A stretch of DNA of 62,445 nt, counting the filler, from Globobulimina sp. (Eukaryota), in NCBI GenBank assembly GCA_003354225.1. It is 35 parts of 35 records of this genome, joined end to end, with 100 filler letters (N's around TTAATTAATTAA, not from the genome) between each part and the next. Parts side by side here need not be neighbours in the genome. Positions count along the whole stretch, not along the records: positions 50,044 to 51,729 come from PIVH01013129.1; 34 more parts are not named here. One strand, written 5' to 3'. This document shows positions 7,582-53,515 of this stretch, piece after piece (within the stretch, counting starts at the first letter, position 1; each line of letters opens with the position of its first letter). The notes below the pieces were generated by a model, which worked only from the letters and a program-made list of their open reading frames with translations, did not search any database and was not told the DNA's origin. The translations under genes were made by a program, and so were the position numbers.

Positions 7582-7683
<102 letters not shown>

Positions 7684-25029: not shown

Positions 25030-26155
25030 CAACATATTCTCATTGAATTGTTTTGGATATAATAATGGCTTATTATCACCGCCAAGAAATCCCTTGCCGC
25101 CATCACTTAACTTACTTAATATGGTTTTAATTTGTTGCTGAATATTTGTCAGTGTTTCGACTGCAGACTCCGGACATTCAACACTTAAAAAATTGCACGT
25201 ATCACCCAAATATTTAGAGATTAATTTCTCGGTGGCATTTAATTTCATTTTCTTGCTGATCGATGTATTTTTCTCTTGTTTAGGTTCCTGTGGCCCTAAA
25301 ATTTTACAACTTTGATATTCAGATAATAAGAAATTCAATAAATGAATCCGCGCCGTTTCTGAGCTATTAAATTCAGCCGCACCTTTTGGATATTTGTATG
25401 GAAACCCGCTTGATTTTAGAAATTGATACACGGATTTATAAAATAATGGAATTTTGCTTAAATCTGTGGGTATCACAGGAGATATCACACCATCCATCGA
25501 ACAAATCTCTACAATTAATGAGGCTACGATATCAAGAAAATATTGGTTCACTTTCTCGATGGCTCCACGTATTTTTTCAACGCTTTCTTCGCCGTATCTG
25601 AGTATTTTATTATTGGTTAATATGACCAGTCTGTGCTGTGCAAGGATATGTATATGTAAATGTAATGTAATATGATGTAACTAACCCAAGATCGTCCATT
25701 TTATCCTGAATTTCTTCAAACATAATATCTTCAAAATCTGCTCTGCGAATACTGTTTACATTGACGGATTTCGACGCTTTTCTGGGTGTTTTCTTTTGTG
25801 GTGCTTGTTTTTGGTGTGATTGCTTCGATTTTGATTTCGGTGAAGATTGTTGTTGATACGATTTTGATTTTGGTGAAGATTGTTGTTGATACGATTTTTG
25901 TTGTTGTTGATAGGATTTTTGTTGCTGATATTGTTGTTGTTGATATTGAGGTTGTCGATATTGCTGTTGTTGATTATAGCCACCTCCTCTTTGTTGGCCT
26001 TGGTTATAGCCTTGGTTGTAATCCTCCCGATTATAATCTTGAGATCTTCTGCCTCCGCCTCTTCTTGCACCTCTTCCTCTGCCTCCTCTGCCACCGTATT
26101 GCTGCCTATCTTGATAATTATCATCATAATAGCTGTCATAATATCGGTTACTCAT
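25030..26155 (-). CDS. FAM98: FAM98-family protein with N-terminal RGG/Gln-rich region, 3' partial; intron 25598-25685
   Basis: MDDLGY, FLKSSGFPY, RIHLLNFLLSEYQ, LGDTCNFL, IKTILSKL, KPLL collinear with FAM98. Confidence 0.65.
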
Positions 26156-48257: not shown

Positions 48258-49856
48258 CATCGCGTGAACAAAGCCGCCAACTCCAACTCCAATGCCAATG
48301 CACATGCAAATAGCACCAAAGCGGCGCATAACAACCATCATAATCATAGTCGCAGTCAGGGCCATGCACTGTATAATGGTTCGTTTAACGGCTCTTTTGG
48401 TGCCTCGATATTGAAGAAGCAGCAGAAAGGGCACCGGAATCGGAACCGCTCGCCGACGGAACATGGCCGCTATACGCAGAACAATGTCAAGATACTGCAG
48501 AAGGAAGAGAAGGAGCAGAGCACTGCGGGCACTGTGAAAGAATACGTGTACCGGCGGAAAGGCTACAAATCGCCGGATATCATCTCTGCGCCGCCGCCCA
48601 TCCCACCCAAACCGGAGGGGACCGCCTGCATATTAACGCAAGTTAAATTGGAACCGAATGGCGCAGCGCACTCTGTGTCGCCCCAAACTGCAGAAACGAG
48701 CACAAAAACACCGGCAAAGTCACTCTCAAACGGAGCGGCCACGAAAACGAAATCGCATCGTATTGTATCACAGGAAAATTTAGAGCAACAATTGAAACAA
48801 AGACAAAAGGACGCAAAAAAAGAGAAAGAGGCCAAATTGAAAATGTCGCCTTCAAATTGTGCAAATAACAAGAAACCGCAAAATAGCACTTTCTCCGTAG
48901 CCGCGCTGTATAAAATTAATGAGCGCAATGATGAGGAATCAAAATCGAAATTAAGCGCCAAACCCAGGGCAGATACGGCATCGCCTAAAAAATTAGACTT
49001 CCTCGCCATTGCAGACGACGCTTTTTTTGAGGCAATGATCCCGAACCAAACGGACATGGACGAGTTATTCAAGCACATCGCGCCGAAAATCAATGTGTTG
49101 CATGACGACGTGGGCTCGCCTCAGACCTCGCCGTTGCCTCTCAAGAAGATCTTGAAAATGAAGAAGAACCATCACAGCCACGGCCACGGCCACGGCCACA
49201 AGCACAAGCACAGCAACACCGTGATCACGGACCAATTGCGGCTGGTATGGGACGCCTTATGTTACTGCCAAGCCGACAGCAACAACACGCCGCGGCGCAG
49301 AGAGATCTATGTGGCGATGAACAAGACGCATAGCGAGTATATGAAGCACCGCGATATGCATTTCGCCAATGAATGCATCGACGTCTGTTTGGCGTACGGC
49401 ACCGTGGAGGAAATGATCAAAGGCCGCATCTCGTCGTTGTATATCTTGCCGGTGATCTTGAACGCATTGACCAGTAACGAGTCGACTTTTTACGACGCGC
49501 AGCAAAAGCTGAAGATGAGCGATGCCGAGAATAAGAGCCATGTTTGGATCACGTTGGATGCGCTGAAACGGCATCTCGTGGCCGGATACACCAACCATTT
49601 GTCCACTTACTTCACGTTGACGTACTTATACCGAATCATCCGGAACGCGACGCGCCTCTTCGCCTTCCATAAGGACGACCGGCAGTGCCATGACAGCCTC
49701 AATGACGAGCTGAACACTACGCAATTGGCGCAGATCCGGTTCAGAGTTCGGAAAGGCGCATATAATAACAATCAGAGTCAGGCCGCGCAGTATAATGACA
49801 GTAATAAGCGGGCCTATAATCACAGTCATAATCTCACATTCAACTATTATTCGTAA
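48258..49856 (+). CDS. Hypothetical protein, disordered His-rich N-terminal region plus helical C-terminal domain, 5' partial
   Basis: 530-aa open frame with HGHGHGHKHKH; no family recognised. Confidence 0.6.
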   Translation, partial: HRVNKAANSNSNANAHANSTKAAHNNHHNHSRSQGHALYNGSFNGSFGASILKKQQKGHRNRNRSPTEHGRYTQNNVKILQKEEKEQSTAGTVKEYVYRRKGYKSPDIISAPPPIPPKPEGTACILTQVKLEPNGAAHSVSPQTAETSTKTPAKSLSNGAATKTKSHRIVSQENLEQQLKQRQKDAKKEKEAKLKMSPSNCANNKKPQNSTFSVAALYKINERNDEESKSKLSAKPRADTASPKKLDFLAIADDAFFEAMIPNQTDMDELFKHIAPKINVLHDDVGSPQTSPLPLKKILKMKKNHHSHGHGHGHKHKHSNTVITDQLRLVWDALCYCQADSNNTPRRREIYVAMNKTHSEYMKHRDMHFANECIDVCLAYGTVEEMIKGRISSLYILPVILNALTSNESTFYDAQQKLKMSDAENKSHVWITLDALKRHLVAGYTNHLSTYFTLTYLYRIIRNATRLFAFHKDDRQCHDSLNDELNTTQLAQIRFRVRKGAYNNNQSQAAQYNDSNKRAYNHSHNLTFNYYS

Positions 49857-50077
49857 AGCAGTTAAATATTATTTCATGCTCACAATGTATCAATGATTTA
49901 AAACTCAGCGAAATGCGGAGTGAATTATCGAAATTAAAAAAAANNNNNNNNNNNNNNNNNNNNNNNNNNNNNNNNNNNNNNNNNNNNTTAATTAATTAAN
50001 NNNNNNNNNNNNNNNNNNNNNNNNNNNNNNNNNNNNNNNNNNNTTACAGCTGTAAACAAAACAAAAAATGAACTTAA

Positions 50078-51729
50078 TTATGCGTATTTTTGATGTACAA
50101 TTTGTGGACCATGCTCCTCATATTCTTCCTTTGTGATCCATTTGTCCTCAAACTTAGACATTGAGCTTAAAATCGACCCGCCAATCCATTGTGAATATTT
50201 ACGTTGAGGTGATGCTATGACATTAACCGTACATTTCCTATCCGATTCCGATACTAATTCTTCAACCTCATTTTTCAATCTCTGCCCAAATCCCTCATAC
50301 ATGGTGTTGCCGCCACATAACACAATGTTTTTAAACAAATCTGTCCTTAAATCAATATCACATTTCATAATGCCGTCATACACCAAATGCTGAACTCCTT
50401 TATCACTCAATCCAATAAACTGTGGTTTAAACATAATCTCTGCTGTTTTGAATAATTCTGAATCAACTTCAATAACTTCGCCGTCCGGCAATTCATATTC
50501 AAGAAAAGTATCTGATTCCTCCTCCAGCTCCAACTCCACGTCATAATCCAATGCAACATAACATAACTTTTCTTTTATATTCTCCACTACTTTTCTTTTT
50601 TTTGAGGTTGAAAATGAATATCCTTTGTCTGCAAATAATTTAATTAAATATTCTGTGCAATCCTCCCCTGTCAAGTCAAGTCTTTGTATAGCATGTTTTA
50701 AACAGTACCCATCATATATTGGCACGCAATGTGTTGCTCCGTATCCTGAACTTAATACAATTCCGCTCGTTTTCCCAGCTGCATATAACGCCAATGTTTC
50801 CCCGACAGCAATATATAAACCATCCACATTAAAATTTTCAAACATAATTTGTGTCATTTTCTGACGATTTAATTTTGGAGCTAACACAGATTCTGTCAAC
50901 AATACACGTGCTTCTTCTGGAACTATATTCAATTCATTATAAAATGCATGATACCATAATCGTTCCTAGAATGTGACAATAAACAATTTATATAATTATA
51001 TAACAACATATATACCAGGCATATACAACATAACTACATCGTCATAATTGGTGATAATCCCACATTGTATGGGATATTTCAACTTGAAAACACCTCTCAT
51101 TCCCTTTGCTTCATCACCAATAACTATTGAATCGTAATCATCTGTATCGTGACCGCTACGTGGTCTACCAACCACCGATGGGAATTGTGATATCGGTGCC
51201 TCCTCGCCACCATAACCAGCTTTTATGTGACCGGAACCGTTATCAATTACCACCACTGCATCCACACAATAATAGAAATTGCAAATCAAATCCATGACTC
51301 CATCCGTTAGCAGCAGTGTTGCTGCCATCGCGCGAACAAAACCGAATACCAACACAGCAGGCACAATTTCATCAGGTCTCCGTGGCGTAAAGTCCATGAT
51401 ACAGTCAGCTGGCTCAATATCATTCAATTTCATATCCATTGATTGTGAATGTTGTGATGTAACAGTATCCCCAGCCGCAGCACAATACCTGTTCAATAAC
51501 TTAACAATGAGTTCATAATCTTCATTAACTGGTATCTCCGCAATGTTACCTGTCAATATATCGCCACACTGTACCGCTTTGTTGTAAAATGCTTTATTGC
51601 AGTCAGATCGAACAGAGATAACTTTGCCATCCAAAGCTAAGCCGCCATACAAGCCTTGGGCGTGCGAAAAGGAATACATTACACTGAAACCTTTAGCTCC
51701 CGCGCCTACACTGCCACTGGTAGCGCGCC
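50078..51729 (-). CDS. SYLF/Ysc84-domain-actin fusion protein, 5' partial; intron 50966-51034
   Basis: [31 protein letters not shown]...DILTG (SYLF) in frame with [52 protein letters not shown] (actin). Confidence 0.85.
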
Positions 51730-51829
51730 NNNNNNNNNNNNNNNNNNNNNNNNNNNNNNNNNNNNNNNNNNNNTTAATTAATTAANNNNNNNNNNNNNNN
51801 NNNNNNNNNNNNNNNNNNNNNNNNNNNNN

Positions 51830-53515
51830 TGTTTATCGTTTAATTTTAGCGATTTTAAGGTTATAAACAGTGCGATTTCTAGCAATTATTATCAGCGGGT
51901 ATTAGCGTCGGAGACTAGTTATGATTCATTGGGATTTGAGTTAACTTTATCGAGTGCTTCAAATGGGAGAAGGAGAAGGAGGAGATTACAAAGTGTTGTT
52001 TATGGACATATATTGTATTCGAGTATGGATTATTATTATCGCGCAATCAGTGCGGACGCATTGACTGTGTTTTATTACTCAAAGAAGACAGATAATATTC
52101 TAACAAACGAGTTATTGGCTCAAGTGCATGAAATTGAAACGGGGATAAAACAATTTGGTGGATACAGTAATCATTCATTGATTTATGAGGAAACTAATCA
52201 AAATATCAAAAAGTTATTATCTGTCAATGAAAATAAGAGATTATATTTGGAATCACCGCCGGGGTCTTTTTTAAATTATGTTTATCCACAGATTTTGCTC
52301 GGAAATTATGTGTTTAATGGGAATGGCGAGAAGTTAATGTTCCAGAATGACGATATTAGAGAAACTATTGCAAGCTATGAAGATTTAGTTGGTGACTTTT
52401 TTGATTTTTCATTCAATTTAGTCAACGTAGCGAGCAAATATTTGGCTGCGGTGTACCCATTTGGTTATAGTAACGGTGCTGAATCGTCGTCGGAATTATT
52501 TAATTGGGTCGCTTCATACAAAAGGAAGTATTTCGATAAAGTGAGTTTGAGAGATATTGGTGTTGCAGTTTCTGATTCGCGTGGATTGATACTGCAAAAT
52601 GAATTATATTTGTATTTAGAAAGAGATTTAAATTTAGCCATTGCATCGTTGGTAATTATATACATTGTGCTATATTTGTATTGCCATTCTTTTTATATTA
52701 CAACATTAGGACTATTTGGTGTGTGTTTAAGTTTTGTGCCATGTCTCGCAATATATCAAATGTTATGGGCCGAATCATTCAATTTGATGAATATGGTGTC
52801 AATATGGGTCATTTTAGGCATTGGCTTGGATGATATCGCAGTGTTTCTGTCGTCGTATCGCAGAGCTCCATTACAATTGGACGACGGCACTGCGACTCCA
52901 AATTCTTTGCGCTTAGCATTTGCGTTCAGAGAGGCTGGAACTGCCATGTTTGTGACCTCACTAACTACGGCCTGCTCGTTTTTTAGTTTATGTTTTTCTA
53001 CAATTAACCCACTGCCTCAATTTGGATGGTTTTTAGGCTCATTGGTGATTACCAATTTTATTATGGTCATGACGTGGTTTCCGTGCATATTGCAGTCGTA
53101 TGTTTATTTTGTTGAACTCGGCATAAAATATGATTATCACATAAAGAAATGCACGAAATGGTTAGCTGTCGCTATTACCAATTATGACGGCGGAGAGCAA
53201 GGAAAAGCCGTTGCAGATAATTCGAAGCAAGACAGCAAATTGAATCTGTTGAAAAAAACATTAATCAACAAACTGGATAAAAAGCATAAACATTCGTATG
53301 TTGATAACAATCATTCCTTTTTTGGTGATGGCACAATATTATATTTTATTATCATGAAATCAGGCGTTGGATTGGCATTAATTGCCGTATTATCAATATT
53401 AACTGTCATATTTGCATACAATTCGACAGCACTCAGTTTAGCACAGTAAACAGCTCAATTGTTACCGGAGAACACCAACTGGGGACAATTGAATATTGCC
53501 ATTTCCAAACTGAAC
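51830..53515 (+). CDS. Dispatched/Patched-like sterol-sensing-domain protein, partial, with in-frame TAA at 53447-53449
   Basis: ILGIGLDD, AGTAMFVTSLTTA, QFGWFLG, MTWFPCIL. Confidence 0.85.

Follow-up and report, generated by a model that had tools for sequence, protein, structure and literature searches.

What is a gene that runs in a single frame from half of an actin-regulating, lipid-binding domain into a divergent actin, and is it a genuine gene of its foraminiferan host? The question is raised by a contig of the Globobulimina sp. assembly GCA_003354225.1 (PIVH01013129.1), whose entire 1686 bp (positions 50044–51729) are occupied on the minus strand by a gene joining a SYLF/Ysc84 domain to an actin fold. 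This contig belongs to the window, by which we mean the whole stretch of 62,445 bases that was analysed. The window consists of 35 contigs of 1686–1688 bp (11 of 1688, 13 of 1687 and 11 of 1686 bp), sorted by length and separated by 100-bp spacers of 44 N, TTAATTAATTAA and a further 44 N (e.g., 49944–50043 and 51730–51829); readings spanning any spacer are meaningless, and genes on adjacent contigs are unrelated. In answer to the question, the SYLF-actin gene is a real, transcribed and spliced foraminiferal gene, and it represents a new domain architecture composed of known parts, present in at least two foraminifera, the second being Bolivina argentea (protein P0401). The explanation we favour, with a probability of roughly 55%, is that of a spliced SYLF protein whose low-complexity tail has been replaced by a motif and a divergent actin, and which would act as a seed or cap at the membrane.

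The gene is made up of two stop-to-stop open reading frames (ORFs) on the minus strand. The upstream one (51727–50999) holds 243 residues, intron read-through included, with an uninterrupted coding part at 51727–51035, while the downstream one (50965–50081) holds 295 residues. As the initial annotation had it, the SYLF half, linker and actin share one frame: a single ORF, without stop or intron, leads from the SYLF half through a 74-residue linker into the first 75 actin residues, both Pfam families are found in it, and the spliced contigs from public runs agree. Altogether, the reading frame is open over 526 codons; its 5′ end is truncated by the contig end, a point on which the earlier description had to be corrected. 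The content of guanine and cytosine (GC) is 44% in the SYLF part, linker and actin N-terminus alike and drops only in exon 2 (36%) and the intron (23%), so that the SYLF-actin junction shows no GC break, again as first described. The parts of the gene are the following:

51482–51729, minus strand: SYLF/Ysc84 domain, C-terminal half, matched by Pfam Ysc84; runs off the contig at 51729
51260–51481, minus strand: linker of 74 residues, in the same ORF with no stop, aligning with the linker of P0401
51269–51391, minus strand: hydrophobic pre-actin motif inside the linker, common to the window and P0401, ending 4–6 residues before the actin core
51035–51259, minus strand: actin fold, exon-1 part (residues about 6–82), from Pfam Actin and Protein Data Bank (PDB) alignments; DNGSG retained, D-loop short and acidic, IQCG in place of IEHG
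50966–51034, minus strand: spliceosomal intron of 69 bp, GT..AG, phase 0, 23% GC, from the sequence and the run contigs
50081–50965, minus strand: actin fold, exon-2 part (residues about 83–375), from Pfam Actin; C-terminus HQKYA
50078–50080, minus strand: stop codon TAA
50044–50077, minus strand: first 34 bases of the 3′ untranslated region, up to the contig end, covered by record 1 of run X1 (50044–50533); 23.5% GC

The assignment of the N-terminal part to the C-terminal half of a SYLF/Ysc84 domain is borne out by the Pfam family Ysc84 (PF04366), which matches ORF residues 5–73 (51715–51509) at 50.3 bits, with a cut-off of 25.1; the match covers only part of the profile (46–119 of 127) because the contig ends at 51729. 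Among the matches listed, the closest SYLF sequences are foraminiferal (Rosalina, Globobulimina, Nonionella and Bolivina, 59–72% identity). The Rosalina SYLF protein P0027 is 68.7% identical to 51727–51482 (tblastn), and the Reticulomyxa filosa SYLF protein P0132 reaches 55%, compared with 64–72% for the Rosalina, Nonionella and Globobulimina proteins. On these grounds Reticulomyxa filosa was rejected as the source, which is a foraminifer and probably closer to the rotaliids. Ordinary foraminiferal SYLF proteins continue with S-x-D-x-x-L-N followed by a low-complexity tail, and the similarity of the window to S-x-D-x-x-L-N is faint. Neither the product of the window gene nor P0401 has an SH3 domain by Pfam, an actin fold standing in its place in both. 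In other SYLF relatives the domain is differently accompanied: P0131, from ENA/Logan contigs as is P0136, has a PH domain C-terminal to SYLF, and P0136 and Nonionella stella P0212 have, by eye only, a helical stretch resembling a ubiquitin-binding module. The SYLF tail seems to be a hot spot of domain swapping.

The actin fold following the linker is complete, as had been proposed, since Pfam Actin (PF00022) extends across both exons, with 57.5 bits for ORF residues 158–234 in exon 1 (profile 6–79 of 410) and 306.1 bits in exon 2 (profile 77–409). Identity to the conventional actin P0304 is 207/375 (55%). The best 60 of 150 PDB matches (E ≤ 1e-20) are all conventional actins, with 8trm_A at the top (E 4e-111), and so are the relatives of exon 2 (best 120 of 7885 matches), where the highest identity is 57%. 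The residue numbers used here, mapped through P0304, are those of the usual alpha-actin numbering. The PDB and P0304 alignments uphold the degeneracy of the catalytic residues that was first noticed, with the substitutions Q137G (AIQAV to AVGET), D154S and D157Y (DSGDG to SSGYG) and H73C (IEHG to IQCG). In the HMMER alignment, the D-loop (DNase-binding loop), SGHDTDDYD, has two residues fewer; it is acidic and identical to P0304 at 4/15 positions. Of the features of a conventional actin, the domain thus lacks Gln137, Asp154, His73 and the hydrophobic D-loop (40–50) and keeps His161. Compared with P0304, the nucleotide pocket retains 17 of 24 residues, including DNGSG, Lys18, Gly156, Gly158, His161, Lys213, Glu214, Gly301/302, Tyr306 and Lys336, and the other surfaces are kept to different degrees (barbed-end groove 10/14, W-loop 6/8, hydrophobic plug 7/13). 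Judged from its sequence, the actin-like domain is probably a pseudo-actin that does not hydrolyse adenosine triphosphate (ATP).

In regard to the linker, a two-part motif common to the window and P0401 reads FxPR[RK]PxEI[VI]PxVLVFxF[IV]R, then varies over a stretch that has 12 additional residues in Bolivina, and closes with [IV][ML][DE]LI[CL]x[FY]YY. Scanning the window with a pattern of the motif gave a single coherent match (51269–51391), the other match (25423–25557) holding stop codons. A short form of the motif, LVYG[FY][IV]... I[IV]I.[FY]Y, constitutes the N-terminus of the actin-like fragments P0139 (131 residues) and P0220 (133 residues), both of which end, after DDM/DDV, by read-through of a presumed intron at the same site as the intron of the window; in P0220, DNGSG, D-loop and His73 are degenerate. 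Judging from these two fragments, actin paralogues with an N-terminal extension may form a family of wider extent, and the fusion probably arose when a SYLF paralogue became linked to an actin paralogue in which the N-terminal motif was already present. The linker belongs to no Pfam family (the only hit, DUF1327 at E 0.12, is noise), no F-box was matched by Pfam at E ≤ 10 in the window linker, P0139, P0220 or P0401, and the ESM Atlas returned no usable match for the linker. What the initial annotation called a box-like motif is therefore present as a conserved hydrophobic motif, with no match to an F-box or any other Pfam family.

Evidence of splicing and of the integrity of the junction comes from public runs, of which eight rows from four studies match part of the contig. 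Four runs were compared: X1; X3, with another study and organism label than X1; X8, of a third study and with the organism label of X1; and X6, of a third organism. The one intron of 69 bp that had been predicted has GT..AG ends and is exactly skipped in contigs of X1, X3 and X8 (three of the four runs compared; joint 50964→51034), no contig of these three runs covering it, and in X6 the intron region is uncovered (50899–51069). Coverage over the SYLF-actin junction (51250–51550), which had been put forward as a check, is continuous in two runs. Record 6 of X1 (1593 nt) runs without a break through 51034–51729, i.e., 696 nt of exon 1, with 7 differing letters and another 769 nt upstream, and record 10 of X3 (1938 nt) runs through the same 696 nt with 11 differing letters and another 812 nt upstream. 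X6, about 95% identical, spans 51126–51727 via overlapping pieces.

Comparative evidence is provided by P0401, an 809-residue Bolivina argentea protein of EukProt, deposited as a non-representative member of a cluster under the 391-residue P0124. Pfam finds PH_3 at residues 6–109, Ysc84 at 233–362 (111.4 bits, profile 2–126 of 127) and Actin at 444–808 (365 bits). P0401 is 48% identical to exon 1 of the window, that is, to the SYLF half, linker and actin N-terminus (E 1e-73), and 61% identical to exon 2 (E 2e-128); identity to ordinary actin, 55% for the window and about 48% for P0401, lies in both cases below their mutual 61%. Relative to P0304, they have 65 derived residues in common, among them Q137G, A138E, V139T, D154S, T303N, E72Q, T351K and R372Q, and their hydrophobic plugs are identical at 11/13 positions. 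At the hydrolysis sites P0401 carries Q137G, D154S, H161N and H73N. In a quick tree of 28 rows, with long branches and with the actin-related proteins (Arps) left out, the two actin domains are sisters (Shimodaira–Hasegawa-like approximate likelihood ratio support of 100, stem 0.78). As P0401 shares both the linker motif and the degenerate actin, these proteins form a conserved foraminiferal family, and SYLF-actin is very probably a real conserved fusion gene. The same losses in the Bolivina homologue indicate that the loss of hydrolysis residues is ancestral and that the protein is a maintained pseudo-enzyme, not a product of decay.

Structural modelling contributed little to this picture. 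An AlphaFold2 model of P0401 from a 106-row alignment (mean predicted local distance difference test 54.5, predicted template modelling score 0.37) is too poor for domain packing, although a helix is predicted with low confidence at 154–169, before the SYLF core. Prediction of a complex between the SYLF part of P0401 (130–365) and its linker with the actin-like domain (385–809) gave a score of 0.00 and hence no verdict.

The fusion was initially thought to be without known counterpart. This holds for the literature, where none of the papers found describes it, but not for sequence collections, as P0401 is present, unnamed, in a public protein set. In a word-indexed search with exon 1 (1905 candidates), PF04366 and PF00022 occurred together in none of the 120 listed of 160 matches. 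HMMER search of exon 1 against 1.84 billion representatives gave 3077 matches, with six two-stretch matches among the 150 listed; five of these six, P0121, P0132, P0134, P0137 and P0160, are tandem actins or SYLF-only proteins without the fusion. Both searches passed over P0401, since it does not represent its cluster, and of the 25 clusters opened solely that of P0124 had more than one member. The Joint Genome Institute metagenome scan gave two loci in which the actin part alone was matched, and in the ESM Atlas residues 230–809 of P0401 found only actin clusters (0.82). For Retaria a pair of actin paralogues has been reported, actin1 and actin2, and the main-text passages of the same source, supplementary trees aside, do not mention a SYLF-actin clade (PMC5455982, in excerpt).

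What such a protein might do can be approached from its parts. SYLF binds phosphoinositides via an N-terminal amphipathic helix together with the rest of the domain, and yeast SYLF domains also bind F-actin (PMC3105542, in the passages available). The PH and SYLF domains would place the protein on a phosphoinositide-rich membrane; membrane targeting, proposed at the outset, is made more plausible by the PH domain of P0401 and by this binding property of SYLF. Lacking Gln137 and Asp154, the actin fold would not hydrolyse ATP, and lacking the hydrophobic D-loop, which could not be inserted into another subunit, it would lose the longitudinal contact that actin normally makes on its pointed-end side. 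The domain would then not polymerise as a normal subunit, whereas its better-kept barbed face could accept incoming conventional actin or barbed-groove binders. Being unable to add onto a barbed end, it would occupy a filament's pointed end, anchored to the membrane. This geometry is read from which actin surfaces are retained and which are lost, and the specific role of a membrane-anchored pointed-end seed or cap is put forward tentatively, being on its own somewhat unlikely.

Several points weigh against this explanation. Human SH3YL1 SYLF does not bind F-actin, and actin binding is accordingly not general to SYLF (same passages of PMC3105542), so that the actin-binding property first ascribed to the domain stands for the yeast domains and fails for the human one. 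The N-terminal half of SYLF and any PH domain of the Globobulimina protein lie beyond the contig, outside the window. In the barbed groove, T351 and M355 are both lysine in the window. P0401 has lost further pocket residues (H161N, K336I, E214K), which may mean, as far as sequence can tell, that nucleotide binding is gone too. The library type of X1 and X3 is unrecorded, and it is the missing intron that points to RNA; the synonymous excess discussed below rests on a subset of the differences. Finally, the first 271 residues of P0401 are the same as in P0124, a canonical PH-SYLF protein, and the two sequences part inside SYLF. The N-terminus of P0401 could be a transcript-assembly join, in which case PH is perhaps outside the fusion; alternatively, P0401 and P0124 could be products of one gene whose alternative 3′ exon sets both include a SYLF C-terminal half. 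Another SYLF gene, P0024, has an unspliced intron ten residues downstream of the divergence point, and both the window contig and one X6 contig (without overhang) stop only a few bases away from it. Under both readings, the SYLF C-terminal half, linker and actin are continuous in Bolivina and in the window.

Among the alternatives, the one that survives best, although unlikely, is that the actin fold serves as a protein-binding platform, a scaffold bringing partners to PH/SYLF membranes without any role at filament ends; the partners could be barbed-groove binders (profilin- or WH2-type ligands) or unrelated proteins. Such a role agrees with the loss of catalytic residues, with the further erosion of the Bolivina pocket and with the family-specific conserved surface changes seen in the 65 common derived residues. 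It also has a precedent in plant ARP8/SUSA2, where an N-terminal F-box precedes a divergent actin fold presumed to be a substrate-recognition module, and where mutation of nucleotide-contact residues had no effect in the assay (PMC7562919, in excerpt). On the other hand, filament contacts are kept beyond the needs of a scaffold, in the W-loop, the barbed groove and the plug, the last also between the homologues, and the fusion partner SYLF is itself an actin-patch and actin-regulator domain.

Rather less likely is a co-polymerising tether, in which the domain would enter ordinary filaments and staple them lengthwise to membranes, as has been suggested for natural actin fusions like filactin. 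The 55% identity to actin and the exclusively conventional actins among the best PDB matches speak for it, but the D-loop has lost its hydrophobics, and both species have other residues at the sites of Gln137, Asp154 and His73. Moreover, the actin domain of Dictyostelium filactin is described as 'extremely homologous' to actin (PMC2441452, in excerpt), unlike the domain in the window.

A more elaborate version of the seed or cap is a single-chain membrane nucleator that would template a filament without Arp2/3 or formin and be kept as its pointed-end anchor, alternative 3′ exons choosing the form of the protein. The idea of exon choice comes from the 271 identical residues of P0401 and P0124 and from the window and X6 contigs ending near the point where they diverge; as a whole, this version is decidedly improbable.

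Sequence variation bears on the possibility of a transcribed pseudogene, or of a neutral recent fusion lacking function. Of the 78 differences to the runs 40 are listed, and within this subset 26/39 coding differences are synonymous, or 16/19 in exon 2 alone (site 50863, where ordinary actins cross-mapped, was left out of the tally). The sole indel is a 6-nt in-frame deletion at 50241, in a loop inserted relative to actin. Although the hydrolysis residues are gone and neither annotation nor paper exists on the fusion, a pseudogene is highly improbable in view of the frame open over all its codons, the mostly synonymous listed differences of exon 2, the frame-keeping indel, and the retention of both substitutions and architecture in a homologue of only 48–61% identity.

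A second version of the gene, about 95% identical, mostly synonymous in its differences and with the 6-nt deletion, was observed in X6 and X8 (50044–51729); as X8 bears the organism label of X1, the two versions could be alleles or recent paralogues. At 51644–51696, the window differs at four sites from all three covering runs, and at 51669, 51688 and 51696 the run letters give SYLF-conserved residues (A>D, F>V, F>Y), so the contig end probably carries assembly errors, or else an allele.

As for an artefact, the short contig, the highly fragmented assembly and the four deviating sites in its last 90 bases would fit a chimera of two genes, but this is very unlikely, since two contigs, each from a study of its own, extend without interruption over SYLF, linker and actin and further upstream, the same junction thus occurring in three independent assemblies (the genomic contig and the spliced X1 and X3 contigs), while overlapping pieces of X6 cover it in a third organism, Bolivina shares it together with the linker motif at 48% identity, and composition is unbroken.

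The favoured SYLF protein with its actin-like tail can be compared with several known systems. Ysc84/Lsb3 of yeast and SH3YL1 of mammals share PF04366 with the window, but carry a C-terminal SH3 domain where the window has an actin fold, and they differ from P0401 in its N-terminal PH domain. Plant CFS1, composed of FYVE and SYLF, has a second phosphoinositide module, like the PH and SYLF of P0401, although it is FYVE instead of PH and there is no actin fold (PMC5561093, in excerpt). The papers searched describe SYLF in company with SH3 or FYVE, and among those listed none pairs it with an actin domain; of the papers listed for foraminifera and Rhizaria, none mentions SYLF.

Among actin folds, Arp2 and Arp3 are kept at the pointed end with the barbed face as a template, as is proposed here for the window domain. 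Both are ancient, ATP-binding and ATP-hydrolysing families that belong to a seven-subunit complex; the window domain groups in PDB searches (best 60 of 150) with conventional actins. Ubiquitin fusions are usually cleaved, releasing normal actin. The ubiquitin-actin of chlorarachniophytes (Bigelowiella), which the initial annotation correctly cited as existing, is another lineage-restricted actin fusion from Rhizaria (PMC6332867, in excerpt), but its partner is an N-terminal ubiquitin, whereas in the window a membrane/actin-regulator domain is combined with a degenerate actin. Filactin differs in its close homology to actin, against 55% identity and replaced catalytic residues in the window, and in N-terminal domains unrelated to those of the fusion, as Pfam finds in P0401 only PH and Ysc84 besides Actin. 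The actin domain of ARP8 is about 30% identical to actin, compared with 55% for the window, whose motif matches no F-box model.

Other contigs of the window hold additional coding sequences. At 7585–7668, on the minus strand, 28 residues of a conventional-type actin, 82% identical to P0304, represent a lone exon or gene fragment. On the contig following that of SYLF-actin, a 539-residue ORF (51830–53446, plus strand) has relatives carrying Patched and sterol-sensing families, with best matches of 58% (European Nucleotide Archive) and 43% (Bolivina argentea), so that proteins of the source organism itself are absent from the collection searched. The preceding contig carries a long ORF (48258–49856, plus strand) with runs of Asn, His and Ser (NSNSNANAH.., HGHGHGHKHKH), whose low-complexity style resembles the tails of foraminiferal SYLF proteins.

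Foraminifera form very large dynamic pseudopodial networks and shells, built with the help of actin. So far, the innovations described in their cytoskeletal genes are tubulin and actin paralogues (PMC5455982). Natural actin-fold fusions are rare, being represented by filactin, ubiquitin-actin and plant ARP8, none of which pairs actin with an actin-regulating, lipid-binding domain. If the explanation proposed here is true, a conserved, catalytically dead actin placed on PH/SYLF would link the membrane to the actin cytoskeleton in a novel manner, and SYLF-actin would show, by way of a natural experiment, which surfaces of actin persist in a domain that has given up hydrolysis and polymerisation.

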